64,000 nt of DNA from Candidatus Magasanikbacteria bacterium RIFOXYD1_FULL_40_23 (GCA_001783215.1 MFRA01000005.1:329423-393422), one strand, 5' to 3'; shown: positions 40,006 through 62,636, counted from the first letter of the stretch. Made by a program: numbers and translations. The notes: generated from the sequence alone by a model not told the origin.

Positions 40006-40035
40006 AGTTTTAATACTATCTAAAATCAGTTTATA

Positions 40036-40106
40036 GGAGCTAAAGCCCATATATTCTCATTCGTTCGGAAATAATTAAGCAAGTTTAATTATCTCACTCA
40101 CTTATT
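40036..40106 (+). promoter_or_regulatory. conserved hairpin+leader cassette (family B), copy A, ending at the ATG of the GHMP-kinase gene
   Basis: GGAGCTAAAGCCC hairpin + ATATATTCTCATTCGTTC ... CTCACTCACTTATTTTGATTATG. Confidence 0.6.
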
Positions 40107-41099
40107 TTGATTATGATTTTGACAAGAACCCCATTTAGAATTCCTCTTGGTGGAGGAGGTACTGATTTACCATCTTTTTATCAGCAGCATGGTGGTTTTT
40201 TGTTTAGCGCCGCCATAGATAAATACATGTATATTGCCATCAATCGTCCGATTGTGGATCCGCTTGTATACATCAGATATTCACGCACCGAAATTGTAGA
40301 ACATGTATCTCAAATCCAAAATCAATTGGCTCGGGCTGCTCTAGAACAGTATGGCATACAAGATCGCATAGAAATTTCTTCTATGTCTGATGTGCCAGCT
40401 GGTACAGGAATGGGTTCATCCGGTTCTTATTTAGTTGGAATACTAAAAGGTTTGCAAGCTTTAACTCGTAGGGGTTCCAGTGTGCAGGATCTTGCGGAAG
40501 AGGCTTGTCATATTGAGATTGATTTATTGAAGAAACCGGTAGGTAAACAGGATCAGTATCTAGCAGCTTTTGGGGGCTTTACTATAATGGATATAGATAA
40601 AGATGGAAAAGTAAAAGTTTCTAATGCTAATGTAAGCTATGAAACTATAGAAGAGCTTCAGAGTAAGTTAATTTTATTTTATACCGGTATTTCACGAGAT
40701 GCGATGAGTATTTTGGGAGAACAAAGTGCAGCAGCCAAAAAAGAAGAAAGCGATGTTTCCAAATCATTATTGCAAATCAAAGACATTGGCATGGAAATTA
40801 AAAATTCAATTGAACAAGGTAATTTGGATAATTTTGGTAGATTGATGGATGAGCATTGGAGAGTAAAGAAAATGATGTCTAATAAAATGTCTGATCCAAA
40901 GATTGATCGTCTTTATGCGTTAGCCAAAGAAAAAGGCGCTTTGGGTGGAAAAATTATGGGTGCAGGAGGCGGAGGTTTCTTTGTGTTCTATTGCCCTAAT
41001 GATAAAAAAGGAGTGCGCGAAGCAATGAGAGCAGAAGGTTTGAAAGAAATGCCTTTTAGGTTTGAAAACGAAGGCGCAAAAACAATGGTTGATTTTTGA
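40107..41099 (+). CDS. hddA: GHMP-family sugar kinase (D-glycero-D-manno-heptose 7-phosphate kinase-like)
   Basis: GHMP motif PAGTGMGSSGSYLVG; it lies in a cluster with a SIS isomerase, GmhB and a nucleotidyltransferase; TGA stop. Confidence 0.65.
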   Translation: MIMILTRTPFRIPLGGGGTDLPSFYQQHGGFLFSAAIDKYMYIAINRPIVDPLVYIRYSRTEIVEHVSQIQNQLARAALEQYGIQDRIEISSMSDVPAGTGMGSSGSYLVGILKGLQALTRRGSSVQDLAEEACHIEIDLLKKPVGKQDQYLAAFGGFTIMDIDKDGKVKVSNANVSYETIEELQSKLILFYTGISRDAMSILGEQSAAAKKEESDVSKSLLQIKDIGMEIKNSIEQGNLDNFGRLMDEHWRVKKMMSNKMSDPKIDRLYALAKEKGALGGKIMGAGGGGFFVFYCPNDKKGVREAMRAEGLKEMPFRFENEGAKTMVDF

Positions 41100-41158
41100 T
41101 TTAACGAAACCATGTCGGGTAACGACCATTGAAACCTGACGAGAACTCTTCATATTAT

Positions 41159-42472
41159 ATGGGTAAGGATTCAGCAAAAGTAGCCGTAATCGGCTTATGG
41201 CATTTAGGGTGTACTGCTTCTGCCGGTTTGGCCGAAGCGGGTTATGTTGTTACTGGAGTTGATTTTGATAAAAAAATAGTTAATGATTTAGCAGAGCAAA
41301 GTGCGCCACCTCTATTTGAGCCTGGTTTGGTAGATTTGATTAAAAAAAATAAAGATGCTGGTAGGTTAAATTTTACCGCTGATTTTAAAAGCGCCTTACA
41401 GGGAAAGAAGTTCGTAGTTATTGGTTTTGATACCCCAGTAAATGATAATGATTATCCTGATCCAAAGGTGATATATAAAGCGTGCGAAGAAATTGCCAAG
41501 TTTGCCGACGATAATTGTTTTGTTATAATTATGAGTCAGGTGCCAGTTGGCAGTTGCCGCGAGATGAAGAAATTAATTTTAAAACGTAGACCAGGGATGA
41601 AATGTAATATAGTTTATAACCCGGAAAATTTGCAGTTGGGCCAGTCTATAAAAAGATTTTTAGAACCGGACAGAGTAATAATCGGCTTGGAGAATGAATC
41701 CGCGCGTCAGTCAGTAGAAGGTTTTTTTCAAGCAATTGGTGGGCAGAAATTATACATGGATTTAGAAAGCGCAGAGATGGTAAAACATGCTACCAACACT
41801 TTTCTGGCCATGTCTATAAGTTTTATAAATGAAATTGCTGATTTTTGTGAAATTACTGGTGCGGATATACGCAGGGTGGTAGAGGGTCTAAAGGCAGATG
41901 CTAGAATAGGAGCTAGGGCATTTTTAAGTCCGGGAATTGGTTATGCCGGCGGTACTTTAGGTCGTGATATTGCGGTGTTAAGAGATTTGGCAAAATCCAA
42001 AAAATTAAAAACGCACATTATCGGCGCGGTTAGAGAAGTCAACCGCAGTCGTCAAAAAAAGATTATAGAAAAAATAAAAGGCATTATCGGTTCGTTGCGG
42101 AATAAAAAAGTTGCTATTTTGGGACTAACCTATAAACCGGGCACAAGCACTCTGCGTCGTTCCATGTCACTCGAGATAGCGCAAAAATTATTGGCAGTAG
42201 GCGTAAAAATTAAAGCCTATGATCCAAAGATTATTACTCCGATCAAAGGTTTGTCAAAAATGAAAGTGTGCTTGGACCCGTATCAAGCCATTCTTGGCGC
42301 CGATGTAATTTTGTTGGCCACCGATTGGCCGGAATTTAAAGAATTAGATTTTGTCAAAATTAAAAAAATAGCCAATCGGGCTATAGTAGTAGACTGTAAG
42401 AATTTTTTATCGCCCGAAGTTATTAAAAATCATGGCTTTTCGTATTATGGCATAGGCTTTAATTTGGAGTAA
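41159..42472 (+). CDS. UDP-glucose/GDP-mannose dehydrogenase-family nucleotide-sugar dehydrogenase
   Basis: N-terminal VAVIGLWHLGCTASAGLAEAGYVV Rossmann motif; the central helix and C-terminal UDP-binding domain match the family. Confidence 0.7.
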   Translation: MGKDSAKVAVIGLWHLGCTASAGLAEAGYVVTGVDFDKKIVNDLAEQSAPPLFEPGLVDLIKKNKDAGRLNFTADFKSALQGKKFVVIGFDTPVNDNDYPDPKVIYKACEEIAKFADDNCFVIIMSQVPVGSCREMKKLILKRRPGMKCNIVYNPENLQLGQSIKRFLEPDRVIIGLENESARQSVEGFFQAIGGQKLYMDLESAEMVKHATNTFLAMSISFINEIADFCEITGADIRRVVEGLKADARIGARAFLSPGIGYAGGTLGRDIAVLRDLAKSKKLKTHIIGAVREVNRSRQKKIIEKIKGIIGSLRNKKVAILGLTYKPGTSTLRRSMSLEIAQKLLAVGVKIKAYDPKIITPIKGLSKMKVCLDPYQAILGADVILLATDWPEFKELDFVKIKKIANRAIVVDCKNFLSPEVIKNHGFSYYGIGFNLE

Positions 42473-42481
42473 ATTATTTAT

Positions 42482-43339
42482 ATGATTTTAAAAAATAAAG
42501 TAGCTATAGTTACGGGTGGCAGTCGAGGGATTGGCAAAGCCGTAGTAATATCTCTTGCTAAATCTGGCTGCAAAGTTGTGGTTGCTTCTATAATTTCTGA
42601 AGATTTAAAAAATTTGCAAAAAGAGCTTTTGCGCGAAAGTTTTCGTATAGAAATAAAAAAAGTGGATGTTTCTGATTACAGCCAAGTACAAAGAGTAGTA
42701 AAGGCTGTGGTGAAGAAATTCGGTACTGTAGATATTTTGGTAAACGCTGCCGGAATATATGGACCAATTGGATTGTTTAAAGATAACGATATTCAAAAGT
42801 GGGCGCAAACATTGCAAGTAAATTTACTTGGCACTGTTAATTGTGTGCATGCTGTTTTGCCTATAATGATGAAGAAAAAATCTGGTAAAATTATTGATTT
42901 TTCTGGTGGGGGCGCCGTAAATAGTTTCCCTAATTTTTCTGGCTATGCCACCTCCAAAGCTGCAGTAGTTCGTTTTACCGAAACAATTGCTGAAGAGTTA
43001 AAGCCATACAATGTGCAGATTAATGCGATTGCGCCGGGAGCGGTAAACACCAAATTGCTAGATGAATCTTTGGAAGCAGGTAAAAAAGCTGTAGGCGACA
43101 AATTTTATACAAAGATTGTGCAGCAGAAAAAAGAAGGCGGAGACTCGCCTCAGTTGGCGGTGGATTTAATTTTATTCCTTATCTCCGATAAGTCCTTTAA
43201 TCTAACCGGCAAATTGATAAGTGCAAAGTGGGATAATTGGAAAAATTGGAAAAAAGAAGATATTGAGAAATTAAAAAATAATTCGGAATATAATTTGAGA
43301 CGAATTGATAATAAAGATTTCCGAGAAGTAAAAAAGTAA
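42482..43339 (+). CDS. short-chain dehydrogenase/reductase (SDR)
   Basis: VAIVTGGSRGIGKAV; NAAG; YATSKAA catalytic YxxxK. Confidence 0.7.
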   Translation: MILKNKVAIVTGGSRGIGKAVVISLAKSGCKVVVASIISEDLKNLQKELLRESFRIEIKKVDVSDYSQVQRVVKAVVKKFGTVDILVNAAGIYGPIGLFKDNDIQKWAQTLQVNLLGTVNCVHAVLPIMMKKKSGKIIDFSGGGAVNSFPNFSGYATSKAAVVRFTETIAEELKPYNVQINAIAPGAVNTKLLDESLEAGKKAVGDKFYTKIVQQKKEGGDSPQLAVDLILFLISDKSFNLTGKLISAKWDNWKNWKKEDIEKLKNNSEYNLRRIDNKDFREVKK

Positions 43340-43354
43340 TTATCATACTTTATA

Positions 43355-43465
43355 GGGGCTAAAGCCCATATATTCTCATTCACTCAGAAATATCCAGATT
43401 CGGTATTTATAATTCGCAAGCAATTATAAATACCTCACCGGCTATTTCACTCACTCATTTCGAAT
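43355..43465 (+). promoter_or_regulatory. conserved hairpin+leader cassette (family B), copy B
   Basis: GGGGCTAAAGCCC + ATATATTCTCATTCACTC ... TTTCACTCACTCATTTCGAATATG. Confidence 0.65.
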
Positions 43466-44467
43466 ATGAAAGTTGGAATTATTGGCGCGGGGCTTATTGG
43501 GACAAAAAGAGCGGAAGTTATATATAATTTAAAAAAAGACAAACTAGTCTCTGTTTTTGATATTGATTTTAGTAAGAGTGAGCAGCTAACTGCAAAATTC
43601 GGAGGAAAGGCTGTAAAAAGTAAAGACGATATTTTTAAAGATAAAAGCATAGATACAGTAATTATCGCTACCTGGAATAATGTTTTGGCAAAGTTATGTT
43701 TGGAAGCTATAAAAAACAACAAAAATGTTTTGTGCGAAAAACCCCTTGGCATAAATTACGAGGAGGCAAAGAAAATTTATTCGGCGGCAAAAAAGAAAGG
43801 CGTAACACTTAAAGCTGGATTTAATCATCGTTTTCACGGTTCGGTATGGAAAGCGCATCAGCTTGTAAAAAGTGGAGCCATCGGCGATCTTATGTATATG
43901 CGCGCAGTATATGGGCATGGAGGAAGAAAGGGCTATGATTTAGAATGGAGAAGAAATAAAAAAATCTCTGGTGGGGGAGAGCTATTGGAAAAAGGTGTAC
44001 ACTTGCTAGACTTATTCCGCTGGTTTATGGGTGAGTTCAAAGAAGGGGTGGCCTTTTGTGAGAACATGTTTTGGGATAGGACAAAACTAGAGGATAATGC
44101 CTTTTGTACCCTGCGTACACGCGATGGTAAGGTAGCTCAAATGCAGGTAAGTATTACTCAGTGGAAGAACAAGTTTAATATTGACATCTTTGGCAAGAAA
44201 GGCTATGTTAGCGTAGAGGGAAAAGGAGGCAGTTATGGTCCGGAAAAGCTAGTAATCGGCAGAAGAAAAGAGTTGGGAGTTAAGCCAATTGAAGAAGAAT
44301 TTTTGTTTGACAAAGATACTTCTTGGGAAGAGGAATGGAAAAATTTTAGCACAGCTGTGGCAAAAAAGATTGAGCCAATCGGTAGTGGCTATGACGGCAT
44401 GATGACAAATAAATTGGTAGCAGGTTTATACGCTTCGTCTAAAAATAGAAAAATTATTAATTTTTAA
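43466..44467 (+). CDS. Gfo/Idh/MocA-family NAD(P)-dependent oxidoreductase
   Basis: MKVGIIGAGLIG ... EKP ... family layout. Confidence 0.7.
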   Translation: MKVGIIGAGLIGTKRAEVIYNLKKDKLVSVFDIDFSKSEQLTAKFGGKAVKSKDDIFKDKSIDTVIIATWNNVLAKLCLEAIKNNKNVLCEKPLGINYEEAKKIYSAAKKKGVTLKAGFNHRFHGSVWKAHQLVKSGAIGDLMYMRAVYGHGGRKGYDLEWRRNKKISGGGELLEKGVHLLDLFRWFMGEFKEGVAFCENMFWDRTKLEDNAFCTLRTRDGKVAQMQVSITQWKNKFNIDIFGKKGYVSVEGKGGSYGPEKLVIGRRKELGVKPIEEEFLFDKDTSWEEEWKNFSTAVAKKIEPIGSGYDGMMTNKLVAGLYASSKNRKIINF

Positions 44468-44474
44468 TTATATA

Positions 44475-44546
44475 GGCTGCGGCATATATTCTCGTTCGCT
44501 CTGATAAAATTAAAACATTTAATTCTTTCACTCATTCATTTCATAT
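44475..44546 (+). promoter_or_regulatory. conserved hairpin+leader cassette (family B), copy C
   Basis: GGCTGCGGC + ATATATTCTCGTTCGCTC ... TTTCACTCATTCATTTCATATATG. Confidence 0.6.
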
Positions 44547-45116
44547 ATGGACAAACACAGCTATATTGATCAGTATCTAAAAAGAACAGCCCAGATCGCC
44601 AACGAATGTAGTCGCGAAAGTTTGGAAAAGATGGCCAATATTTTAGCTATTACCCGAGAAGTAAAGGGTAGGGTATTTTTTTTGGGCATAGGTGGAGGGG
44701 GAGCATCTACTTCTCACGCTACCAACGATTTTAATAAGATTGCCAAAATTTCTACATTTTGTCTTTCTGATAACGCTGGACTTCTTACTGCTTTAGCAAA
44801 TGATGAGGGTTGGGATTCTATTTTTCAACGACAATTGGAAATGCACCATCTAACCGCCAAAGATTGTTTATTTATTTTTTCAGTAAATGGGGGAACTCTA
44901 AATATTTCTAGCAATTTAGTTAAGGCTATGGAATATGGCAAAGTGATTGGGTCCAGGATTCTGGCTGTAGTGGGCCGATCAACTGGCGTAGCCGCTCAGC
45001 TTGCCGATGCCTGTTTGGTTGTGCCGACTGTGGACGAGTCTATGGTAACTGCACACACCGAAGATTTTCAATTACTTGTTAACCACTTGTTAGTAAATTT
45101 GCTCAAACAGGTATAA
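44547..45116 (+). CDS. gmhA: SIS-domain sugar-phosphate isomerase (phosphoheptose isomerase-like)
   Basis: SIS-domain layout with GIGGGGASTSHATNDF; it lies in the heptose-pathway cluster. Confidence 0.6.
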   Translation: MDKHSYIDQYLKRTAQIANECSRESLEKMANILAITREVKGRVFFLGIGGGGASTSHATNDFNKIAKISTFCLSDNAGLLTALANDEGWDSIFQRQLEMHHLTAKDCLFIFSVNGGTLNISSNLVKAMEYGKVIGSRILAVVGRSTGVAAQLADACLVVPTVDESMVTAHTEDFQLLVNHLLVNLLKQV

Positions 45117-45142
45117 GGGCTAAAGCCCCACTCATTTCGTAT
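45117..45142 (+). promoter_or_regulatory. conserved hairpin+leader cassette (family B), minimal copy D
   Basis: GGGCTAAAGCCCC + ACTCATTTCGTATATG. Confidence 0.5.
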
Positions 45143-45751
45143 ATGTTAAAAAGTCAGTCCGCTAAGACCAAAAAAAATTCTAAGTCCGGCCGCAAGGCCG
45201 TTTTTTTGGATAGAGATGGAACTATTATAAAACAGGTAGAGCTTATGCATTCTGTAGAAGAGTTGCATTTACTGCCTGGTGCAGCCCGTGCAATAAACGC
45301 TTTAAATAAATTAGGTTTTTTGGTAGTTATTGTTACTAATCAGCCAGTAGTGGCACGAGGTATTATAGGGCCAAAAGAAGTGGACCAAATACATGCGGTT
45401 TTAATCGAGCGATTAAATGGCAAGGGGGCTAAAATAGACGGTGTGTATTTTTGCCCACATCACCCGGAAGCTACTATGCCGGAATACCGTTTGCGCTGCC
45501 GCTGCCGCAAGCCGGAGCCGGGAATGATTTTAAAAGGCTTAAAGAAATTAAATATAAATCCGAAAAAAAGTTTCATGATTGGCGATGCCTTGATAGATGT
45601 GGTTTCTGGTAAAAAAGCAGGTGTAAAAACAATTTTGGTAAAAACCGGTCCGGGGCATGCTCGTTTGGATGAAAAATATAAAGATATTAAACCAGATTTT
45701 ACAGTTAAAAATTTGATGCAGGCAGTTAAAGAAATAACAAATAGTATTTAA
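45143..45751 (+). CDS. gmhB: D,D-heptose 1,7-bisphosphate phosphatase (HAD IIIA)
   Basis: HAD motif I FLDRDGT; GmhB-specific zinc loop CPHHPEATMPEYRLRCRCRKPEPGM. Confidence 0.75.
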   Translation: MLKSQSAKTKKNSKSGRKAVFLDRDGTIIKQVELMHSVEELHLLPGAARAINALNKLGFLVVIVTNQPVVARGIIGPKEVDQIHAVLIERLNGKGAKIDGVYFCPHHPEATMPEYRLRCRCRKPEPGMILKGLKKLNINPKKSFMIGDALIDVVSGKKAGVKTILVKTGPGHARLDEKYKDIKPDFTVKNLMQAVKEITNSI

Positions 45752-45755
45752 TATT

Positions 45756-46490
45756 ATGTCTAATATAAAACAAGCGGTTATTCTATGTGCTGGTTTGGGT
45801 ACTCGTTTGCGCCCCCTTACAGATACAATGCCCAAACCAATGATACCAATTTTAGGTAAGCCACTTTTGGAGTGGAATATAGAACAGTTTAAAAAACACG
45901 GAGTTACGGAATTTTTTATAAATCTTTATTATTTGCCGGATGTTATTCGTGATTATTTTGGCGATGGTGCCAAATGGGGAGTGAAGATTAATTATTTTCA
46001 GGAGAAAGATATTTTGGGTACTGCCGGCGGGGTGAAAAATTTCGCCAGTATGTTGGATGATAAGTTTTTTCTAATATACGGAGACATGATTAGTTTGATG
46101 GATTATTCCAAGATGGCCGAAGAGTTTGCCTCTCACCCAGATGCTATCGGTATGCAAAGAATGCAAAAAACCGATAATTATGCAGATGCAGATGTGGCTG
46201 AACTGGGGCCAGACGGCAGTTATCTTAAGATACATGCTAAGCCGCACACAGAGAGTTACCCAAATGCCTATCGTATGAAGGGTATATTTATTTTGCGAAA
46301 AGATATTTTGGAGTATGTTCCAGCTAGTACTTTTTATGAGCTTGGCAAGCAGCTTTTGCCAGACGCGGTAAAGGATGGTAAGAAGTTTTATAGCTATGAA
46401 TGCAAAGAGTATACAAAAGGCATAGATACAATGGAAAAATACCAGGAAGTAGAAGAATATTTGAAAAATAACGAAATTACAGTTTCATAG
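45756..46490 (+). CDS. hddC: sugar-1-phosphate nucleotidylyltransferase (heptose 1-phosphate guanylyltransferase-like)
   Basis: ILCAGLGTRLRPLTDTMPKPMIPILGKPLLEW NTP-transferase signature. Confidence 0.65.
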   Translation: MSNIKQAVILCAGLGTRLRPLTDTMPKPMIPILGKPLLEWNIEQFKKHGVTEFFINLYYLPDVIRDYFGDGAKWGVKINYFQEKDILGTAGGVKNFASMLDDKFFLIYGDMISLMDYSKMAEEFASHPDAIGMQRMQKTDNYADADVAELGPDGSYLKIHAKPHTESYPNAYRMKGIFILRKDILEYVPASTFYELGKQLLPDAVKDGKKFYSYECKEYTKGIDTMEKYQEVEEYLKNNEITVS

Positions 46491-46564
46491 GCCAATTCTT
46501 GACAGTTTTGATTATACAGGTTAGTTTAACCATAATAATTTCAATTTATTATATATAATATACT

Positions 46565-47287
46565 ATGAAAATATTTATAGATAGTGCTGATCTTAAGGAG
46601 ATTGAAAAGTATGTCAGTTGGGGAATTTGTGATGGTGTTACCACCAATCCTAGCATTTGTTTAAAATCCGGAGTAACGGGCGGTGAAGAAGGAATGAAGC
46701 AAAGATCAATTGAAATTGCTAATCTTATTGCGCCTCAACCACTAAGTGTAGAGGTAACTTCCGATGATATAGACCAGGTCTTTGCTCAGGCTAGAAAGTT
46801 TAATACTTGGGCAGACAATATTTCCGTAAAAGTTACTATTACCGATAGAAACGGTGCTTCACTTTTGCCTGCAGTATATAGACTCGTTAGCGAAGGTATT
46901 TCGGTAAATGTTACTGCTATGATGACCTTTAACCAAGCTATTATGGCTGCCAAGGCTATAAATGCCGGTTTAGAAAAAACCAATATTAAGAAAACTCATT
47001 TTATTAGTATTTTTGCCGGCAGAATTTCAGAAGAGCATGGGGTAGAGCATTCGCAAAAAGTTCTTGAAGATGTAAGGCAGTGGCTTGATTTTCATAACTA
47101 TAAAAATATTGAAATTATTGTTGGCTCAGTACGTAGTCCGGAAAATGTAAAATTGTGGGGCAAGAGTGGTGCCCATATTCTTACTATACCTCCAGAAGTA
47201 ATTGGTAAATGTTTGATGAATGCTCGTACCAAAGAAACAGTTGTGCAGTTCTTAAATGATGCCAATAAGGCCATGCAATCTCTCTAG
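46565..47287 (+). CDS. transaldolase / fructose-6-phosphate aldolase (TalC/FSA subfamily)
   Basis: FIDSADLKEI ... GVTTNPS and overall alignment to E. coli FSA; about 220-240 aa. Confidence 0.75.
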   Translation: MKIFIDSADLKEIEKYVSWGICDGVTTNPSICLKSGVTGGEEGMKQRSIEIANLIAPQPLSVEVTSDDIDQVFAQARKFNTWADNISVKVTITDRNGASLLPAVYRLVSEGISVNVTAMMTFNQAIMAAKAINAGLEKTNIKKTHFISIFAGRISEEHGVEHSQKVLEDVRQWLDFHNYKNIEIIVGSVRSPENVKLWGKSGAHILTIPPEVIGKCLMNARTKETVVQFLNDANKAMQSL

Positions 47288-47323
47288 TCTCAGGTAGTTC
47301 AGCCATGGTATACTAATTCTACT

Positions 47324-48418: not shown

Positions 48419-48420
48419 GT

Positions 48421-50831: not shown

Positions 50832-50934
50832 AGTCTATTTAGTAGATAAATTAGAGCATCTTCTAAGGCTTAATTTTATCATAAATAGACGCCTGGTCAA
50901 CTAAAATTAAGTGTTTTTTGCTAGGCAATGTTAG

Positions 50935-52191: not shown

Positions 52192-52222
52192 ATCGATTTA
52201 ATAAATAATCAATAGTAATTAT

Positions 52223-52384: not shown

Positions 52385-52386
52385 AT

Positions 52387-53079: not shown

Positions 53080-53684
53080 GGGAACTAGCATTTGGTGAAA
53101 ACAAAATATCTGTTTTAGATAAAGTAATATTTTTTTTCCGAGCAAGGCGCATAAAAAAATATTTGCAAGATTGTGATGTAGTTGTAGATGCTGGCTGCGG
53201 CCATTCTGCTACTCTTCTGAAATGGATTTTGAAAACCTTTTCTGTCAAAAAGGGGATTGGCCTAGATGTTTCTTTTGAAGGTGGTCTAACAGACGAAAAA
53301 TTGAATTTAATAAAAAGTGATTTTTCTAATCCGTTACCGCTTGGCGACAACCTGGCTGATTATGTTATTTCTACGGCGGTTGTAGAACATTTATCAGATC
53401 CTTTGTTTCATGCAAAAGAAATAGAGAGGGTATTAAAGCCCGGTGGTAAGTTGTTGCTTACCACGCCCTCAAAGTTGGCAAAACCAATTTTGGAGTTTTT
53501 GGCTTTTAAATTGGGTGTTATAGACAGAGACGAAATAGCCGATCATAAACAATATTTTAATGTTGCAGAGCTAAAGGAGCTGCTGGTTAAATGTGGGTTC
53601 CGCCCTGAAGATATTTCTGCCCACACTTTTTTATTTGGACTAAATAATTTTATTTTAGCAAAAAAGTATGTCAAATCTAATTGA
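53076..53684 (+). CDS. class I SAM-dependent methyltransferase
   Basis: VVDAGCGHSAT ... VEHLSDP ... LKPGGKLLLTTP; ATGA overlap with the upstream gene. Confidence 0.6.
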   Translation: MRELAFGENKISVLDKVIFFFRARRIKKYLQDCDVVVDAGCGHSATLLKWILKTFSVKKGIGLDVSFEGGLTDEKLNLIKSDFSNPLPLGDNLADYVISTAVVEHLSDPLFHAKEIERVLKPGGKLLLTTPSKLAKPILEFLAFKLGVIDRDEIADHKQYFNVAELKELLVKCGFRPEDISAHTFLFGLNNFILAKKYVKSN

Positions 53685-54873: not shown

Positions 54874-54991
54874 ACCAGGATTATCGCTTAAATGGCTTGC
54901 TTTTGGGGCTAAAACATGCTAGCATTAAGTGTGCTAGAGGTGGTAATTTTTTGTAAAAACGGTTGGTTTGTTAGGTGTAAATGGTTGCCCT

Positions 54992-55801
54992 ATGCCAAGT
55001 AAAAAAGACACAATTTCTGCTTGTTTGGTAGTTTATAACGAAGAAGCTGTTATTGAGCGTTGCTTGCAAAGTATAAAAGGTCAGGTGGATGAAATAATAA
55101 TAGTCCATGATGGCCCTTGCGCAGACAAGACTTTAGAAATAGCAAAACGCTATACTGACAAAATTTTTGTAAGAGATCATGCCGGGGTAATGGAGGCGCA
55201 TTTGGTATTTGCGTTCCAGCAAGCCCAAAGCGAATGGTTGTTGCGCATAGATGCAGATGAGTTTTTGGATGCAGATAGTTTTTTAAAAATTAAAGAAGCG
55301 ATACAGCCAGAAACTGTAGATGCACTGATTTTGAACTGGGAAATGTGGAATGGTCAAGAAACAATCAGTTTGCCGGGGTTGCAAAAAATGTGTCTGATGA
55401 GAAAAAACAGATTTCATTATTGTGGTGTGCCCCATGAAAATGGCGAGGTAGATGGTCAAGTAAAAAAGATTGACGCATTTTTACATCATCGTCCAGCGTA
55501 CAACAATGTGGCCTGGTCATCCTTTCTGCGAAAGAGTAAAAAATGGGTTCCAATACACGCCAACTATTTTTTTCCAGAAAACATTTCTTTTACATGTTTT
55601 AATAGTAGTTCAGACAAATGGATAGAACACGCAAAGTATGTGCGTACACATATTTGGCGATATTTATTTTTTAAACCAATTAAAATGTCTCTAGGCCAGC
55701 TCAAAAATGGTCTATGGAAAAGTTTTATTGGTATACAGGTTTCCGTTCAAGTTTATGTCTATTACACCATGCTTTATTGGCAAATAATAAAAAAACTATA
55801 A
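54992..55801 (+). CDS. family-2 glycosyltransferase (paralog of the 47324 gene)
   Basis: ISACLVVYNEEAVIERCLQSIKGQVDEIIIVHDGPCADKTLEI, about 60% identical to the N-terminal half of the 47324 product. Confidence 0.6.
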   Translation: MPSKKDTISACLVVYNEEAVIERCLQSIKGQVDEIIIVHDGPCADKTLEIAKRYTDKIFVRDHAGVMEAHLVFAFQQAQSEWLLRIDADEFLDADSFLKIKEAIQPETVDALILNWEMWNGQETISLPGLQKMCLMRKNRFHYCGVPHENGEVDGQVKKIDAFLHHRPAYNNVAWSSFLRKSKKWVPIHANYFFPENISFTCFNSSSDKWIEHAKYVRTHIWRYLFFKPIKMSLGQLKNGLWKSFIGIQVSVQVYVYYTMLYWQIIKKL

Positions 55802-55824
55802 TATAAAAACTTATTTCGAATATA

Positions 55825-55900
55825 GGGGCTAAAGCCCATATATTCTCATTCACTCGCATAAAGTTAAATACATTTAACTTTATGCTCATTCATTTCGAAT
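55825..55900 (+). promoter_or_regulatory. conserved hairpin+leader cassette (family B), copy E
   Basis: GGGGCTAAAGCCC + ATATATTCTCATTCACTC ... CTCATTCATTTCGAATATG, preceded by a partial tail copy CTTATTTCGAATAT at 55810-55823. Confidence 0.65.
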
Positions 55901-57013
55901 ATGCAAAAGAATTTTTGGTATGGTAAAAGAGTGCTAGTAACCGGAGGAGAAGGTTTTCTTGCGTCCCATTTAGTTAAACAGCTTATCGATGTGGGTGCAT
56001 GTGTAACCACTACCGTTCGTCATGCTCGTCCGCTTAACACTTTAAATCTTATTCAAAAAGGTCCTAAGAAATCTGCTAGCCCAGATGTAGAGCACTCCGA
56101 TTTGTTGGATTTTTTTGCTTTGCGCCGAATTTGTGACCGTCACCAGATAGATACTATATTTCATCTAGCCGCCTCTGCTATTGTAAGTGATGCTGCCAAT
56201 TCTCCAATGTCTACAATAGAAAATAACGTGGTAGGAACTTTAAATATTTTAGAAGTAGCTCGCATCAACCATATTCCGCGCGTGGTAATTGCTTCGACAG
56301 ACAAATCCTACGGAGATCATGCCAACGATAATTTGGAGAAATTACCTTATAGAGAAAATTATGCTTTGCGCGGACTGGATGTATATAGCGCCTCCAAAGT
56401 TTGTGCAGATGTTTTGAGCCAGACATATTCCTACCAGTTTAAATTACCGGTTGTTGTTTTGCGACCTTGCAATATGTATGGTCCTGCAGATCTAAATTTT
56501 TCTCGTCTTATTCCGCGCACTATTATGTGTTTGTTGTCTGGCAGAGCGCCGCATATCAATGCAGGCAACGCAGATGTATTGCGAGAGTATATGTATATAG
56601 AAGATGTAGTGCAGGGCTATTTGTTGGCAGCCGAAAAGGTGTCAGATATTTATGGAGAAAACAATCAAAATATGCCAAAGCATGGCAAAGAAACCTATGG
56701 CTGGGCTGCGTTTAATTTGGGATCATACACAGAAAAAGATTTACAAAATATTTCCAAATGCGACAAGATCCGCAGCGTTACCACAGTTATTGATATGTTA
56801 AGAAAAAAGATTAAAAATATTGAGCCGGTTGTAAAAGCAAAAGCAGCTAATTTTATAGAAATCCCAGATCAGTATTTAGATGGTGGTAAATTAGGCAAGT
56901 TAGGATTTAAACCCAAAGTTAATTTTGAACAAGGCATAGACAAAACTATTAGCTGGTACAAAGAACACTTTGACGATTTGTCCGGCTTAGCAGAGAGATA
57001 CATAGCCAATTAA
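55901..57013 (+). CDS. NAD-dependent nucleotide-sugar epimerase/dehydratase (4,6-dehydratase-like)
   Basis: VLVTGGEGFLASHL Rossmann motif; YSASK catalytic YxxxK. Confidence 0.6.
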   Translation: MQKNFWYGKRVLVTGGEGFLASHLVKQLIDVGACVTTTVRHARPLNTLNLIQKGPKKSASPDVEHSDLLDFFALRRICDRHQIDTIFHLAASAIVSDAANSPMSTIENNVVGTLNILEVARINHIPRVVIASTDKSYGDHANDNLEKLPYRENYALRGLDVYSASKVCADVLSQTYSYQFKLPVVVLRPCNMYGPADLNFSRLIPRTIMCLLSGRAPHINAGNADVLREYMYIEDVVQGYLLAAEKVSDIYGENNQNMPKHGKETYGWAAFNLGSYTEKDLQNISKCDKIRSVTTVIDMLRKKIKNIEPVVKAKAANFIEIPDQYLDGGKLGKLGFKPKVNFEQGIDKTISWYKEHFDDLSGLAERYIAN

Positions 57014-57066
57014 ATTACGCGCCGCGTTTCAAATGACGTTACGCGGCATGATTTCGCTAAATCAAT

Positions 57067-58236
57067 ATGTCTACCAGAAAAATAACCGTAGCTCAGATCC
57101 GTGGAGATGGGTTAAGTGATCGCGAAACCAAAACCTGGGAATATTTTTCTGACGATATTGTGCAGACAGTTTTTGCATCTCGAAAAAACGTTTATTCTCA
57201 ATCCGCTTTGCCTTTTCCAATCATAACATTGCCAGCTAGTAGTGATAATTTTTTATTCAAAAATTACTATAAATATTTTTTTGGTCAATACAAAAGAATG
57301 TTTGGTTTAGAAAAACATTTAGCCGGGTTTGACGTGGCGCATGCGGGTGAGCTTTATAATTATTATACGTACCAAGCTGTCTCGGCAAAAAAGATAAATA
57401 AGAATTTAAAAGTAGTAGCTACAGTTTGGGAAAATAGTTTTGGCAGATTTGAATATAATTACTGGCCGGGATTTAAAATCCCACCAGCTTATTGGCGTCG
57501 TCAGCTCAAAGCGGTTATGGATCGCAACAAAGATGGAGTAGATAAGTTTTTACCAGTCTCTCAAGATGCGGCTGGTTTGTTGTCAGATTACGGCGTTGCA
57601 GATAGTCAAATTCAAGTAGTTGTTCCTGGCATCATCCCAACTCCTGAAGGCAAAATAGTTGTACCTACGCAATTCGCTGGTAAGCAAATTTACTTAATGG
57701 TTAATCGTCTGGTAAAGGAAAAAGGGGTCTATGATGTTTTGTATGGCTGGAGAATATATCTTTCCAAAGCATCAGACGCCAGTCGCAAATTACTTGTTAT
57801 CGTAGGAGAAGGTCCGGAGCTAGGTAATATGCGCCGACTCGTTAAAGAGTGGCAAATGGAGAATAAAATTGCTTTTGTTAATCAGATGCCGTATAGCGAA
57901 GTTTTGGGTCTTTATAAGGGTGCGCAGTGCTTAATTTTGGGCAGTATTCCACGACCAACCTGGCAAGAACAGTTTGGCTATGTGCTCGCCGAAGCTATCT
58001 GTGCCGGTGTGCCTATTGTAGCCACCTATAGTGGTGCAATCCCAGAAGTGGTGGGTGAGGCTGGTTTGCTTGTGCCGCCCGCTCATCCTATTGCGCTGGC
58101 AAATGCCTTGCTTTCAACAGATGACGCCTCTGTTTATAATCGTCTAAAAACAGGTTGTCAAAAAGAAGCAAAGAAGTTTGCGGCTGAAAGCTACGCTCGT
58201 CAAGTCAGTGATATTTACAGATCTTTAGTTGGTTAA
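57067..58236 (+). CDS. family-4 (GT-B) glycosyltransferase
   Basis: C-terminal EQFGYVLAEAICAGVPIVATYSGAIPEVV EX7E region. Confidence 0.55.
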   Translation: MSTRKITVAQIRGDGLSDRETKTWEYFSDDIVQTVFASRKNVYSQSALPFPIITLPASSDNFLFKNYYKYFFGQYKRMFGLEKHLAGFDVAHAGELYNYYTYQAVSAKKINKNLKVVATVWENSFGRFEYNYWPGFKIPPAYWRRQLKAVMDRNKDGVDKFLPVSQDAAGLLSDYGVADSQIQVVVPGIIPTPEGKIVVPTQFAGKQIYLMVNRLVKEKGVYDVLYGWRIYLSKASDASRKLLVIVGEGPELGNMRRLVKEWQMENKIAFVNQMPYSEVLGLYKGAQCLILGSIPRPTWQEQFGYVLAEAICAGVPIVATYSGAIPEVVGEAGLLVPPAHPIALANALLSTDDASVYNRLKTGCQKEAKKFAAESYARQVSDIYRSLVG

Positions 58237-58256
58237 AATAGTAATTAGACTGAAGT

Positions 58257-58955
58257 GTGGTTATGCTAAGGGTTTCAATTGTTATTCCTACTTATAACGA
58301 AGCAAAAAACCTTCCGCTTTTGGCCGAAGAAATTTTTGGCGTAGTTGATCGAAATCAATTTGATGTGGAGTTAATTATTGTAGATGATAATTCTCCAGAC
58401 GGAACTGGAGCGGTGGCAGATGATTTAGCCAAAAAATATCCAATACAAGTTATTCATCGCGCAGGCAAGCTAGGTTTGGGTAGTGCAGTTCGTGAAGGGT
58501 TTGCCAAATCCAATCGTGAAGTATTGGGGGTAATGGATGCCGATCTAAGCCACGATCCGCAGCATCTTAATCAAATGCTTTCACTTTTAAGTGAGTATGA
58601 TTTGGTGGTAGGCAGTAGATTTGAGCAGGGAAGTACTGTAGAGCAATGGAAATGGTGGCGACGTATTATTTCGCAAGTAGGCGTGTTTGTTACGTATATG
58701 CTTACAGGCGTAAAAGATCCGCTTAGCGGCTTTTTCTTCTTCCGCCGTTTTATTTTAGCCAATGTCGAACTTAGCACCACTGGTTATAAAATATTATTAG
58801 AAATTTTAGTTAAAGGTAATCACAAAAAAGTAAAAGAAATCCCGTTTCGTTTTCGTATCAGGAAATTTAGCACCTCTAAACTGGACAAGAAAGAATATTG
58901 GTTATTTTTAAAACAAATTATTTCCTATAGCTTGTATAAAATTTTTAAGAAATAG
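58257..58955 (+). CDS. polyprenyl-phosphate sugar synthase-type GT2 (DPM1/ArnC-like)
   Basis: VSIVIPTYNEAKNLPLL ... IIVDDNSPDGT ... GVMDADLSHDP. Confidence 0.75.
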   Translation: MVMLRVSIVIPTYNEAKNLPLLAEEIFGVVDRNQFDVELIIVDDNSPDGTGAVADDLAKKYPIQVIHRAGKLGLGSAVREGFAKSNREVLGVMDADLSHDPQHLNQMLSLLSEYDLVVGSRFEQGSTVEQWKWWRRIISQVGVFVTYMLTGVKDPLSGFFFFRRFILANVELSTTGYKILLEILVKGNHKKVKEIPFRFRIRKFSTSKLDKKEYWLFLKQIISYSLYKIFKK

Positions 58956-58959
58956 AGTT

Positions 58960-60504
58960 ATGTGGTTGAGAATTAAAAATTGGTGCAGTCTAAATAAGTT
59001 TTTGGTTGCCCTATTAATTTTATCTGCGTTTCTGCTTTTTTATCGTATTTCTTATAGAACTTTTTGGGGAGACGAAATGGCAGTTCTAGATTACCTCAAA
59101 GAAAGTCCGCGAGAATTTTTAGTTAATTATTGGAATAAACCGGATAATCATCCGCCTCTGTATTATTTTTTGGTTGTTTTGGTTAGTAAGATCTTGCCAT
59201 GGAATGAATTTATGGTGCGTTTTGTGTCTGCAGTATCTGGGTTAGCTACTGTGTATTTGGTATATATATTTTCGTTTCGTGTTAGTGGTCAAAAAAAGTT
59301 GGCACTGCTCGCAGGGCTATTTACCGCCGTTTCATCTTATTTTGTCCTTATTTCACAGATGGCTAGGTATCATAGTTTGGCGGCGTTGTTTTCGCTTCTA
59401 ACCTTTTATTTTTTCTACCAGCTTTTCGTAGAGGGGTATTCTAAGCGGGCGTGGTATTTGTTTTTAGTTTCGTTAGTAGCTACTGGTTATACAGACTACC
59501 CGCATTGTTTTTATGTGGTTGTGATTGTAAATACCTTTTATTTATACAGCCTAATAAAGCGTAAAGCCAGCGTGTCGTTCTTGAAATGGGTGGGGGGACA
59601 ATTGGCGGCAGTTGTTTTGCTTAGCCCTTTGGCGTGGATGATTTATAACAGAATTGCGGTGCAAGGCGATGGTGGTTGGGATAAAATAAACTTGCTAGCG
59701 AATTCTTGGGTGCATATTGTAATGGCTATATTTTTCCATATTTACAGTTTTTTATTTGGAGAAAATGTTTTTCCTTGGAATTATTTTTTCTTTTTATCTG
59801 GGGTGGCTGTGTTGTTGGGGGTGTTGTTTGGGTTTATATATGGACTCCGCAAAAAGTCGTGGACCTCTAGCCAGTTGTTTGTGGTAGCTTTAAGTGTATT
59901 TACAGTGGTCTTAAATACATTCTTCATGAACATGGCTAACCCTCGTTATAATTTTATAGTGTATCCAAAGTTTGGTTTTGTGGCTTTTCCTTTGTGGGTT
60001 ATGGTATTTGTCTTATGTTTAAGCAAACTGCCAGATAAAATTAGGATAGCTTTATTTTCTTTATGGGCAGTGGTGGCTATTTTTGGCTTATATAATTTTT
60101 ATCAGGCAACAAATTATTTAAACCCTAGTTATTTTCGCACCTTTGAATCTTTTGAATATATTCGTGATCATGCCAAAGAGGGTGAGTATTTTGCAATTTC
60201 TCCACATGCTGGACCTGGTTTTTTTGAGTTTTATAAAGGCAAATATTTTAATAGCTTAAAAACAGCTGATTGGAAGCAGATTCCGATTCTAGAAAAACAG
60301 GCAAGGCTTTGGTATTTCTCGGCTGGTTCAGAAGGTGCCGAAACTACCTTTGATCCATCTATGGTAGTTCCGGAAGGTTACAAAATTCTAGAACAGTTTG
60401 ATAGCGTGCCGCTTGATCCAACATTTAAAAAAGTAAAAGAAAAAGTATTGGGTCGTCCTGGCTATACTTATAAATATAGTCTATTTTTATTAGAAAAAAT
60501 TTAA
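58960..60504 (+). CDS. GT-C-fold membrane glycosyltransferase (ArnT/PMT, GT39/83-like)
   Basis: 514 aa with about 12 TM helices and a first-loop acidic motif FWGDEMAV; directly downstream of an ArnC-like gene. Confidence 0.55.
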   Translation: MWLRIKNWCSLNKFLVALLILSAFLLFYRISYRTFWGDEMAVLDYLKESPREFLVNYWNKPDNHPPLYYFLVVLVSKILPWNEFMVRFVSAVSGLATVYLVYIFSFRVSGQKKLALLAGLFTAVSSYFVLISQMARYHSLAALFSLLTFYFFYQLFVEGYSKRAWYLFLVSLVATGYTDYPHCFYVVVIVNTFYLYSLIKRKASVSFLKWVGGQLAAVVLLSPLAWMIYNRIAVQGDGGWDKINLLANSWVHIVMAIFFHIYSFLFGENVFPWNYFFFLSGVAVLLGVLFGFIYGLRKKSWTSSQLFVVALSVFTVVLNTFFMNMANPRYNFIVYPKFGFVAFPLWVMVFVLCLSKLPDKIRIALFSLWAVVAIFGLYNFYQATNYLNPSYFRTFESFEYIRDHAKEGEYFAISPHAGPGFFEFYKGKYFNSLKTADWKQIPILEKQARLWYFSAGSEGAETTFDPSMVVPEGYKILEQFDSVPLDPTFKKVKEKVLGRPGYTYKYSLFLLEKI

Positions 60505-60522
60505 TCTTTGTTGTTTTGTTCT

Positions 60523-61380
60523 ATGTTGTGTATTAATTGTGGTACAAAAATGGATGCATATTTTGTAAAAAAGAGTTTCAGTATTGTGCGTTGTTTTACC
60601 TGTAAACTTATGGCCGTAGAAAATGTACCCGCTGACCTAAGCCCATATTATAGGGAAGGGTACTTTACCGGTGATGTGACCTTAGACGGTTATATGGATT
60701 ATGATTCAGACAAAGAAGTTAGTAAGAAAACCTATGTGGATTTTCTTGGAGTAATGAAAAAATTTGTTAAAAACCAACATAGTCCTAGTATGTTAGAAGT
60801 TGGTTGTGCTACTGGATTTTTTATGAATTTGGGCAAGCAGCAGGGGTGGCAAGTAGAGGGGATAGATATATCGGAATATGCAGTCCAAAAAACCAAAGAA
60901 AAGGGAATGGTAGCGTCGGTTGGTACATTAGAAACATATGTAACAGATAAAAAATTTGACGCCATCGTAGCCCAAGATGTAATTGAGCATGTAAAAGACC
61001 CTATTAACGATATTAAAAAATCCGCTGATTTACTCGCAGACAATGGCTTGTTGGTGCTCACCACTCCAGACGCCGGTAGTCTGTGGGCCAGGGTATGGGG
61101 TAAGCGTTGGCATGCTTTTGTGCCGCCTCAGCACTTATTTTATTTTTCAGTCAAAAACCTCTCTTCTGTTTTAGAGAAAAATGGCTTCAAGGTAGAGTAT
61201 TGCGCCCATCACGGTAAGTGGTTTGCAGTTCCATATATTATCAGGCTCTTGTATAGCTGGACTGGTCTTGGAATTTTTTCCAAACTAGCGAGCTGGTCTA
61301 GCAATTCTTTTTTAAAAAAAATATCCCTGCCTATAAATGTCAGAGATACTATTTTTTTGATTGCTCGAAAGATTAACTAA
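60523..61380 (+). CDS. class I SAM-dependent methyltransferase with N-terminal Zn-ribbon
   Basis: CINCGTKM...CFTCKL four-Cys ribbon, then LEVGCATGFF motif I and DVIEHVKDP. Confidence 0.6.
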   Translation: MLCINCGTKMDAYFVKKSFSIVRCFTCKLMAVENVPADLSPYYREGYFTGDVTLDGYMDYDSDKEVSKKTYVDFLGVMKKFVKNQHSPSMLEVGCATGFFMNLGKQQGWQVEGIDISEYAVQKTKEKGMVASVGTLETYVTDKKFDAIVAQDVIEHVKDPINDIKKSADLLADNGLLVLTTPDAGSLWARVWGKRWHAFVPPQHLFYFSVKNLSSVLEKNGFKVEYCAHHGKWFAVPYIIRLLYSWTGLGIFSKLASWSSNSFLKKISLPINVRDTIFLIARKIN

Positions 61381-61381
61381 T

Positions 61382-62509
61382 TTATTCCGCTAGAGTTTTT
61401 TCTATAGACTTCCAAAGATCTGCCGCTGATTTATCCCAAGAGAATTTTTGACATTGGATTTTTCCTTTTTCAATCAGCATATGGCGCAGGCTTTCGTCGG
61501 CAGTTATCCTTACCATAGCATCTCTGACTTCTTGGATTTGAAACGGATTAACAAATACGGCTGCGCCGCCCGCTATTTCTGGCATAGAAGTAAGACTAGA
61601 AGAGATAATAGGTACGTGTGCCCGCATGGCCTCTACTAGAGGTACGCCAAAACCTTCAAAATATGGGATGTAGGTTAAGCAGAAAGCTGAACCCAAAAGT
61701 AGTCTCATTTCATTGTCGTCTACTCGGCCAGTAAAAATAATATCGTTTTTAAATTCTAGTTTGTTCAAAGTTTCGTTGAGTTTGTCTTGTCCCCAAAAGT
61801 TTGCGCCAGCTATGATTAGTTTAAGGTTATTCTTATTTTCTTTTTTAAATAAATCAAAGGCTTCCATTAGCCGCCCTATATTTTTGCGAGGCGATACAGA
61901 TCCGATAAAAACGAAATAGTCTTCTCCTTTAGAATATTTTTGGCGCGTTTCTCTTTTTTCCTCTGCTGTTATTGGTGCGAAGATTTCATCCGCCGCATTG
62001 TATACAACGTCTATTTTATCTGAGCTTGTGCGGTATTCCTGCATTAGATCTTTTTTTGTGTATTCTGAAACAGTAACAATTCTATTGGCTGCGAAAGCGT
62101 ATTTAGGGAAGTAGTAATTAAAAAATTTACCGGTCCAGAACTTAAGATCTTCGGGGTAGTGTTTAAAGTTGATGTCGTGGATAACTGCCAACTGCTTACA
62201 CTGGGCACCCAAAGGTAGAAGTCCGTCCGGAGACAAAAACAGGTCTGGTTTAATTTTTTTTAGGGCTAGTTTTACTGATATTTGAAACCATAAGTAATAT
62301 AAAAAAGGATGCCTGGTTGGGGGTGGAATAACCATCGGGGTTACGTTTTTGGAAAAAATAAATTCATCGCTAAATTTTCTGTCGAATAAAAATACAAACT
62401 CAACTTCGGGATGAGCCTTGGTGATCCTGCTTAATGTGTGATAGGCAAATCGACCGATACCGTCTAGGCGGTCTTTTAGGAGCATGCGTGTATTTACTGC
62501 AATTTTCAT
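61382..62509 (-). CDS. family-4 (GT-B) glycosyltransferase
   Basis: EGFGVPLVEAMRAHVPIISSSLTSMPEIAG EX7E motif; N-terminal MKIAVNTRML. Confidence 0.7.
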   Translation of the reverse strand: MKIAVNTRMLLKDRLDGIGRFAYHTLSRITKAHPEVEFVFLFDRKFSDEFIFSKNVTPMVIPPPTRHPFLYYLWFQISVKLALKKIKPDLFLSPDGLLPLGAQCKQLAVIHDINFKHYPEDLKFWTGKFFNYYFPKYAFAANRIVTVSEYTKKDLMQEYRTSSDKIDVVYNAADEIFAPITAEEKRETRQKYSKGEDYFVFIGSVSPRKNIGRLMEAFDLFKKENKNNLKLIIAGANFWGQDKLNETLNKLEFKNDIIFTGRVDDNEMRLLLGSAFCLTYIPYFEGFGVPLVEAMRAHVPIISSSLTSMPEIAGGAAVFVNPFQIQEVRDAMVRITADESLRHMLIEKGKIQCQKFSWDKSAADLWKSIEKTLAE

Positions 62510-62636
62510 ATTCGAAATGAGTGAGTGAAATAGCTAGTGAGATATTTATAATCGCTTGCGAGTTATAAATATTGAATCTGGATATTTTTGAGCGAATGAG
62601 TATATATGCGGCGCAGCCCATATAATAAAATGGGCG
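62510..62636 (-). promoter_or_regulatory. conserved hairpin+leader cassette (family B), copy F on the minus strand
   Basis: the reverse complement reads GGGCTGCGCCGC + ATATATACTCATTCGCTC ... TTTCACTCACTCATTTCGAATATG, about 85% identical to copy B. Confidence 0.65.

Follow-up and report, generated by a model that had tools for sequence, protein, structure and literature searches.

A structured leader module ending at the start codons of many unrelated genes in Magasanikbacteria-type Patescibacteria

Judged by described features, the closest known class to the module reported here comprises the REP2 repeats of Neisseria and the IR-A/IR-B repeats of Borrelia, which are 120-180 bp long, lie just upstream of open reading frames (ORFs) and carry a promoter, a ribosome-binding site and the ATG (Delihas 2011, PMC3184786). 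Repeats of the REP2 type contain a pair of internal stem-loops and apparent 5' untranslated region (5'-UTR) sequence but lack long terminal inverted repeats; 26 REP2 copies are found per genome, and 14 associated genes are known to be co-regulated (PMC3184786). The module is described from a stretch of 64,000 nt of Candidatus Magasanikbacteria bacterium RIFOXYD1_FULL_40_23 (GCA_001783215.1, MFRA01000005.1:329423-393422). This whole stretch is called the window, and positions are given in its coordinates unless they carry an L-number, which labels a fetched locus. The parts of the module are, in order, a GC-cored palindrome (HP1), a G-poor 5' box, a hairpin (P2), a G-poor 3' box and an ATG; the 5' box is complementary to the leader end plus AUG, which gives a further helix (P1).

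In common with REP2 and the Borrelia repeats, the module is multi-copy, intergenic and about 100-150 nt long, lies immediately upstream of ORFs, contains the ATG within the repeat (79 of 96 covariance-model matches), and has two stem-loops (HP1 and P2) and only 6-11 bp of terminal complementarity (P1). Unlike REP2, it has no promoter consensus at a fixed position and no Shine-Dalgarno (SD) sequence, either in the module or across the window. Many of its copies are intercistronic, it is found not in one genus but in 25 or more species of a candidate phylum, and its helices are supported by covariation, with a 5'-box/AUG helix that competes with the first hairpin. The likeness is one of described features; sequence relatedness is not expected given the phylogenetic distance.

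The module also falls within putative mobile promoters as operationally defined, a class based on similarity alone, i.e., families of 50-100-nt upstream sequences with at least 80% identity before non-homologous genes of one genome or of several, with sizes of up to 93, surveyed in 1362 genomes without candidate-phyla genomes (Matus-Garcia, Nijveen and van Passel 2012, PMC3488235). It differs from that class in showing no promoter signal and in having a covarying structure of RNA type whose end coincides with the ATG. With ERIC/IRU elements of enterobacteria and Correia elements of Neisseria it shares dispersion, a length of about 100-150 nt, presence/absence polymorphism and, presumably, co-transcription. 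Those elements fold in mRNA and can alter its stability or processing, and Correia copies often lie 5' of genes. However, ERIC and Correia elements are bounded by long terminal inverted repeats, duplicate a TA target and may lie in either orientation, whereas the module has one orientation, an exact start-codon junction and a 6-11-bp terminal helix that changes by compensation. Compared with miniature inverted-repeat transposable elements (MITEs), presence/absence polymorphism is shared, but fixed-sequence terminal inverted repeats and free orientation are not. Finally, the module resembles riboswitch and attenuator platforms and RNA thermometers in its mutually exclusive helices, one of them over the initiation codon, and in its conserved unpaired nucleotides between covarying helices. 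It is unlike riboswitches in having no Rfam match, functionally incoherent hosts, no evident ligand, and a per-genome copy number far above that of any riboswitch class.

JUMPstart/ops elements are short conserved 5'-UTR elements tied to polysaccharide operons, and the framing given in a preliminary description of the window resembles them; the likeness was rejected, as the motif GGCGGTAG is in no module, its sole window match (8805) is at chance level, and the hosts extend beyond glycan genes. Integron attC sites have the R''/R' core sites RYYYAAC and GTTRRRY and lie in ORF-attC arrays next to an integrase. They were considered for their stem-loop-variable-stem layout and set aside: the module has a terminal helix of ATATATTC and GAATATG, large unpaired boxes, and scattered, irregularly spaced housekeeping hosts. 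Searching Rfam with the whole window at the gathering threshold yielded two tRNAs only, and searching it with copies B, C and D at E<=10 yielded only chance-level matches. No description of the module was found in the literature on Magasanikbacteria or the candidate phyla radiation.

Copies of the module and their host genes

The preliminary description reported six copies (A to F) of a hairpin-plus-leader unit abutting start codons. Reading the sequence of five regions located all six, and their positions and those of further copies are as follows.

40032-40115, plus strand: module A, short form, before a GHMP kinase gene (HP1 40032-40053; 5' box 40049-40066; P2 about 40067-40095; 3' box with ATG 40093-40115); from sequence
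43351-43468, plus strand: module B, long form (101 nt from 5' box to ATG), before a GFO/IDH/MocA oxidoreductase gene; from sequence and RNA fold
44468-44549, plus strand: module C, short form whose P2 has decayed, before a SIS isomerase gene; from sequence
45112-45145, plus strand: module D, minimal form with HP1 core GGGCTAAAGCCC and 3' box CACTCATTTCGTATATG, before a HAD/GmhB-like gene
55810-55903, plus strand: module E, short form and best exemplar, before an epimerase/dehydratase gene (HP1 55820-55843; 5' box 55838-55855; P2 55856-55885; 3' box with ATG 55886-55903; P1 strands 55839-55845 and 55897-55903); from sequence
62507-62626, minus strand: module F, long form, before a GT4 glycosyltransferase gene; from sequence
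12658-12739, minus strand: copy G, before an unrelated ORF of 122 aa; its 3' box is CTCATTCATTTCATATATG (12664-12682) and its upstream parts are degenerate
62706-62800, plus strand: module H, divergent, before a methyltransferase-domain ORF (Pfam) with its ATG at 62798
2243-2254, plus strand: 12-nt remnant ATTTCGAATATG at the start of the TraG/HerA-like ATPase ORF 2252 (Pfam), with no model match

The identity of about 85% given earlier for B and F is 85.1% over 121 aligned columns. Allowing up to three mismatches, the 3' box CTCATTCATTTCGAATATG has six matches in the window against 0.03 expected from shuffles, and the 5' box CATATATTCTCATTC occurs at zero or one mismatch in A, B, C, E and F. 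The ATG at the end of each of the six copies opens a long ORF (40113, 43466, 44547, 45143 and 55901 on the plus strand, 62509 on the minus strand), and the gap between the upstream stop codon and the hairpin is 0-26 nt. In module C, HP1 begins right behind the upstream TAA (44465-44467); in module D, the stop codon of the SIS gene (45114-45116) is inside the HP1 left flank. Module E has a remnant 3' box (55810-55823) fused to its HP1.

Covariance-model scores are 77.2 bits for module A (40027-40121, E=3.9e-14), 53 bits for B, 78.2 bits for C, 89.3 bits for E (E=9e-17), 46.2 bits for F and 31.3 bits for H (E=4e-4, with P2 at 62743-62768). Module D is a weak match (E=1.6) with its 3' box match present, and 26-nt minimal forms equivalent to it occur in L014 and L062. 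Copy G has E=0.025, and its 122-aa ORF has no Pfam match. The 12-nt remnant before ORF 2252 may be a vestige or a chance occurrence.

Some details of the preliminary description required correction. Copy A was placed rightly as a module, but its end was given as 40107, which is an in-frame TTG; the module ends at the ATG at 40113, in agreement with the public gene calls, where a 328-aa product starts at that position. The hairpin is present, yet larger than stated, given its AT flanks pair too (e.g., TATAGGGGC-TAAA-GCCCATATA), and the stretch regarded as a variable AT-rich middle is the hairpin P2 in every copy. For the degenerate short form proposed at 41159, the covariance model finds nothing, even at E<=10. 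G, H and the remnant before ORF 2252 had been missed; with G and H the window holds eight copies, six of them inside a 22-kb glycan region.

GTDB representatives (one genome per species) were scanned with CTCAYTCATTTCRWATATG, and at least 109 loci were obtained. Among the matches listed, complete modules are present at about 80 loci or more, in at least 25 assemblies deposited as Candidatus Magasanikbacteria, Magasanikiibacteriota or "Patescibacteria group", and in several deposited as "uncultured Gammaproteobacteria". Single assemblies, such as JACOYB01 and CAZUFD01, contain many dispersed copies. Matches in Paenibacillus, Bacteroidales and similar taxa are bare 19-mers inside ORFs, and are therefore attributed to chance. 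The element is not phage-borne in the scanned viral collection: the scan of viral contigs yielded three chance matches inside ORFs and no module. The family consists of lineage-wide intergenic leader modules of 35-125 nt in groundwater Magasanikbacteria-type Patescibacteria.

Four loci labelled "uncultured Gammaproteobacteria" (L015, L035, L061 and L098, from CAZHYJ01, CAZBWU01 and CAZQLV01, assemblies that carry many modules) encode proteins 80-89% identical to those of the window. This identity places them in the window's lineage, so that their taxonomic label is doubtful and probably wrong. Tandem modules also occur in a "Candidatus Udaeobacter" metagenome-assembled genome (DATION01). The oxidoreductase encoded behind module B is present on metagenome contigs from the Rifle aquifer.

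Over the 615 kb of scan loci, the covariance model gives 96 matches. A same-strand ORF start follows in 83 of them, and in 79 it lies exactly at the module end, a fraction that is inflated, as is the conservation of the 3' box, because the loci were selected by the exact 3' box including the ATG. Modules are oriented as the downstream gene and usually end in its start codon, which bears out the portable hairpin-plus-leader unit abutting start codons that the preliminary description proposed. The random orientation and position it named as the mark of a MITE are not observed. Of 82 copies, 58 follow a co-directional ORF, whose stop codon usually falls within or just before HP1; the module lies either between co-directional ORFs or between a promoter-like site and the ATG.

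Host genes include ssb, recA, ruvC, ligA, rplQ (L17), and genes for thioredoxin, H+-PPase, a glycosyltransferase, GlpX/FBPase, TatD, an S41 peptidase, FemAB and response regulators. The downstream proteins are mostly unrelated to one another: 74 of them gave 90 Pfam families, none in more than four members, i.e., a functionally incoherent set. Glycosyltransferase and epimerase genes do recur among the hosts outside the window. The claim of a locus-specific common control of glycan genes is thus not sustained; the preliminary description had itself named occurrence before many unrelated genes as evidence against that claim, and such occurrence is found in at least 25 assemblies, and before non-glycan ORFs of the window as well.

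Copy content varies between close relatives. At the start of a transaldolase-like (TAL) gene, the window has no module (ATG 46565), L114 has one, and L061 has two and a half in tandem (one partial and two full). The SIS protein of L114 is 90% identical to that of the window, the TAL protein of L061 is 86% identical, and a TTGACA box is found behind the upstream stop codon at this gene start in all three. Because the L114 and L061 copies have different P2 sequences, replacement seems more likely than descent with modification. Tandem and truncated modules are common. Together with the short, long and minimal classes and the presence/absence between relatives, they agree with the spread by copying proposed earlier. 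Turnover, decay and tandem copies indicate that the family is evolutionarily mobile and that individual copies are dispensable, while the great similarity of non-orthologous copies in different species points to sequence constraint or continuing spread.

When target-site duplications of the MITE kind were sought, the flanks were found to be AT-rich (TATATG ... ATATG), and one copy has a 9-nt direct repeat, GGGCTATAG. A single clean filled/empty pair was found, with inexact boundaries; L035 was tried as a second pair and discarded for want of synteny between the gene contexts. In more distant SIS homologues (59-63% identity, L115-L119) the junctions are compact and carry no module, yet gene order differs there, so they say little on insertion boundaries. 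In near-identical strain contigs, the SIS gene (L001:11082-11650, corresponding to window 44547-45116) and a short-chain dehydrogenase gene (L003:924-1781, corresponding to window 42482-43339) are each present as two split ORFs, which look like frameshifts or pseudogenes in population variants.

Helices and expression signals of the module

The family consensus is TATAKGGGC-loop-GCCNCATATAT(T/A)CTCATTCRYTCGGAAA-[hairpin]-TTTCTCTCACTCATTTCG(A/T)ATATG. From the 5' box to the ATG, 65 copies are short (63-69 nt) and 13 are long (100-105 nt, including B and F); the minimal class has 26 nt. Paired regions were evaluated by anchored pair counts, a hand-written structure and the covariance model. RNAalifold on a plain MAFFT alignment had returned no more than a trivial 4-bp hairpin, owing to gaps that MAFFT sets wrongly within the variable hairpin, and was replaced by the anchored counts and the model.

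In P2, pairing is kept while sequence varies freely. In a 65-sequence alignment, all 13 pairs are changed on both sides, 89% of cells are paired, and none of 500 shuffles reaches the observed covariation. When the 3' partner is slid by 1-3 columns as a control, 28-55% of cells are paired. Paired cells amount to 89-92% across alignments, and the 96-hit model alignment agrees, though it leans on the model. The internal loops, UCUCAUUCRCUC and CUCUCACUCAUUUC, are conserved to a far greater degree than the helices around them.

P1 results from the complementarity of the 5' box, ATATAT(T/A)C, to G(A/T)ATATG, i.e., leader positions -4 to -1 plus the AUG. It is 96-97% paired. One of its pairs is U-A in 43 copies, A-U in 18 and mismatched in four. 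The mutual information of this pair, 0.59, is on par with that of P2 pairs and is unshared with other polymorphic positions, so simple subfamily linkage does not explain the switch. Divergent copies keep P1 in entirely different sequence:

62725-62735 with 62778-62788, module H, 11 bp: TATATTAGTAA with TTACTAATATA
L014:7355, 8 bp: TATAATTG with CAATTATA
L099:1015, 9 bp: TATAATTAC with GTAATTATA
L109:908, 7 bp: GTATAATC with GATTATG

HP1 forms in the folds of 56 of 65 full-length copies. Given its right arm shares bases with the 5' strand of P1, the two structures are mutually exclusive. When the RNA is made to begin at the 5' box, the AUG is paired with the 5' box in 46 of 65 folds. Module E illustrates both states, folding into HP1 and P2 with the left arm present (z=-5.8) and into P1 and P2 if the RNA begins at the 5' box.

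A module-like element at L103:2803-2989 lies between a promoter-like site and a tRNA-Pro gene. Its 5' box, TATATAGCCC, is the complement of the 9-nt 5' end of the tRNA-Pro, GGGCTATAG, which is found again as the HP1 left arm. Taken with the other copies, it gives the general layout: a copy of the downstream 5' end, a GC core, the complement (5' box), P2, the 3' box and the downstream 5' end. In the HP1 variant TATATGGGCTAAAGCCC (e.g., L007, L079, L085 and L061:2283-2300), the palindrome contains a two-codon mini-ORF, ATG GGC TAA, whose ATG, in an ATATG context like that of real starts, could act as a decoy start.

The preliminary description also proposed a promoter and a terminator within the unit, and neither is borne out. 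The sole -10-like hexamer is the TATATT of the 5' box. One third of copies have TATATA instead, without the final consensus T, and this final position covaries with leader position -3. Within modules, -35-like hexamers 16-18 nt from TATATW occur at background rate, and consensus scans, which cover sigma-70-like sites only, call no sigma-70 promoter inside them. Where the DNA upstream of a module does not code for protein, sigma-70-like sites precede HP1. Overall, 21 of 81 modules have such a site (12.8+-3.2 in shuffles), and its distance varies between 33 and 98 nt. Module H has TTGCCA-18-TATACT (62691-62720), which overlaps its HP1-like palindrome. Other promoter-like sites are:

62681-62652, minus strand: TTGAGG-18-TGcTATACT, before module F (promoter scan)
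L114, upstream of HP1: TTGACA-17-TATTTT and TTGACA-18-TATACT
L061, upstream of HP1: TTGACA-17-TAAGGT
L103, upstream of HP1: TTGATT-17-TATAAT

As to termination, HP1 was examined as an intrinsic terminator and rejected: it is followed by ATATATTCTCATTC, with no T-run, and the terminator scan does not call it in any copy. Loose criteria of that scan are reached by the P2 of copy E only. A canonical terminator does occur in the lineage (L103:2765-2790), and HP1 is unlike it. From this consensus matching, the module looks like a transcribed leader or spacer rather than a terminator-promoter unit.

The statement that the module has no SD is correct, yet it is not specific to the module. Of 48 window genes, 3 have an SD-like 4-mer (GGAG, GAGG or AGGA) upstream, no more than background, and the G-poor module leader contains none of the three. 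T is at position -1 of 46 of the 48 window start codons, an unusually uniform U-AUG context. Hence, both the missing SD and the TATG ending are properties of the genome rather than of the module. The 3' end of 16S rRNA was sought in all fetched loci, and none is present.

Competing readings

The reading that we rank first, and in which our confidence is evenly balanced, is that the module is a co-transcribed, dispersed RNA leader that sets start-codon accessibility without SD pairing. It would be transcribed within the mRNA from outside promoters and act at the RNA level. As the organism seems not to use SD pairing, the module may supply a pre-formed initiation region, in which the AUG borders an unstructured, pyrimidine-rich tract that P2 insulates. 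Access to the AUG would be gated by HP1 against P1: with HP1 folded, the co-transcriptional default, the AUG would be open; with its left arm removed or unwound, for instance through 5' processing or through a ribosome that terminates at the neighbouring stop codon upstream, P1 would close over the AUG. Our confidence in the direction of this switch is lower than in the reading as a whole. The family would spread by duplication or recombination and be retained where useful.

Several observations weigh against this reading. Both transcription through the module and its effect on translation are deduced from sequence. Only 15 model matches are independent of the seed pattern (the exact 3' box including the ATG), of which about 10 still precede a gene start. 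There are orphan copies without an ORF and copies before very short ORFs, and the copy before the tRNA-Pro gene is unexplained by a purely translational role. Module C, with a fold z-score of about 0 and a decayed P2 where its orthologous copy in L114 has an intact one, looks neutral or decaying. P1 is short and AU-rich, with only 2-3 variable pairs, and full-length folds leave the AUG fully unpaired in only 10 of 65 copies, owing to weak local pairings. P2 has an energy of -10.1 kcal/mol in sense and -10.8 kcal/mol in antisense, and this equal stability on both strands fits RNA and single-stranded DNA alike.

The last point would suit a selfish, MITE-like or hairpin-dependent mobile DNA, with P1 as its terminal inverted repeat, HP1 and P2 as single-stranded DNA hairpins for a transposase or recombinase acting in trans, and any effect on expression incidental. 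Such an element would explain the turnover, i.e., the presence/absence and copy-number differences at one orthologous site, together with the tandem, truncated and minimal forms, the decayed and orphan copies and the short complementary ends. The 9-nt direct repeat flanking the tRNA-Pro copy resembles a target-site duplication, and the genome carries another palindromic repeat family. However, 83 of 96 copies are co-oriented beside a gene start and 79 lie exactly at the ATG, a strictness that mobile DNA does not account for, and target-site duplication leaves unexplained why the complement of the flanking repeat is inside the element. Terminal complementarity is maintained by compensatory change to unrelated sequences, which fits structural constraint and not a transposase that binds a fixed inverted repeat, and in 25 or more species the internal loops are nearly invariant, whereas the stems of P2 change freely. 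A link between the family and a transposase was not found, though no systematic search for one was made. We consider this account unlikely.

Less probable again is a platform for a trans-acting factor, in which the nearly invariant G-poor strands between P1 and P2 would be bound by an abundant RNA-binding protein (S1-, CSD- or KH-type), the ribosome or a complementary small RNA, in a genome-wide post-transcriptional regulon; it is compatible with the co-transcribed leader. The loops that would be bound are far more conserved than the helices, the organism has no SD pairing, and the 3' box alone also precedes genes (G, D and ORF 2252). Furthermore, the 5' and 3' boxes are alike (CUCAUUCG and CUCAUUUCG), as if a single site were present twice. 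These points are offset by 3' box conservation being partly imposed by the search pattern, by host genes that share no function, and by no candidate factor or complementary RNA having been identified. The terminator-promoter-5'UTR cassette of the preliminary description, under which dispersed glycan genes would share locus-specific transcriptional control, seems very improbable. The concentration of six of eight window copies in the glycan region, the recurrence of glycosyltransferase and epimerase genes among hosts elsewhere, HP1 just behind stop codons, the -10-like TATATT, and the promoter and co-regulated genes of the analogous REP2 all speak for it. Against these stand the many unrelated housekeeping hosts in many genomes, the background rate of -35-like hexamers, and a TATATA in a third of copies at a position that covaries with the leader. 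In addition, independent promoter-like sites lie at variable distances upstream of HP1, and HP1 has no T-run and is uncalled as a terminator in a lineage where a canonical one exists.

Other features of the window and significance

A second, unrelated repeat family consists of intergenic palindromes of about 70 nt, TGTCATYCTGARC...GGGATCC...GTTCAGGATGACA. Its positions in the window are:

about 920-985: palindrome just upstream of gene 992
1450-1520: palindrome just upstream of gene 1517
6075-6150: palindrome just upstream of gene 6067 (minus strand)
7395-7480: palindrome just upstream of gene 7383 (minus strand)
9580-9660: palindrome just upstream of gene 9561 (minus strand)

Similar hairpin-plus-ATGACA motifs are found upstream of modules in L088, L096 and L097. 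A conserved non-coding sequence, CGTTACGCGGCRTGATTTCGCTAAATCA, lies at 57025-57066 before ORF 57067, and also before a module in L030 (about 7860-7900). ARAGORN reports a tRNA-Ser with anticodon ACT (16207-16295, minus strand), whose A34 is unusual for a bacterial tRNA-Ser, and a tRNA-Ser(GCT) is nearby at 15240-15326. A GC-rich island at 24000-28000 (0.46-0.52, against about 0.38 elsewhere) contains ORF 25607, before which lies AAAAAGGGGAAAGTCATG, purine-rich and SD-like in a way not seen elsewhere in the window; the island may be foreign DNA.

Candidate-phyla bacteria are uncultured, and translation initiation and operon expression in them are almost unstudied. A strongly covarying leader of about 95 nt before dozens of unrelated genes in many species is a testable handle on SD-independent initiation and translational coupling. 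The family extends the rare REP2-type class, with expression signals up to the ATG, to a distant phylum, and it is a well-populated candidate for a structured RNA motif absent from Rfam. It is also of use in annotation, as it helps to place start codons, as for module A. A further-reaching possibility, which we hold only tentatively, is that the module represents an undescribed class of cis-acting RNA device for SD-independent translation in candidate-phyla bacteria: a plug-in initiation region with an HP1/P1 two-state switch, governed either by the upstream cistron, through its translation or termination, or by a global factor on the invariant pyrimidine loops. If this were true, a mobile leader would bring dozens of unrelated genes in each genome under a single point of post-transcriptional control.

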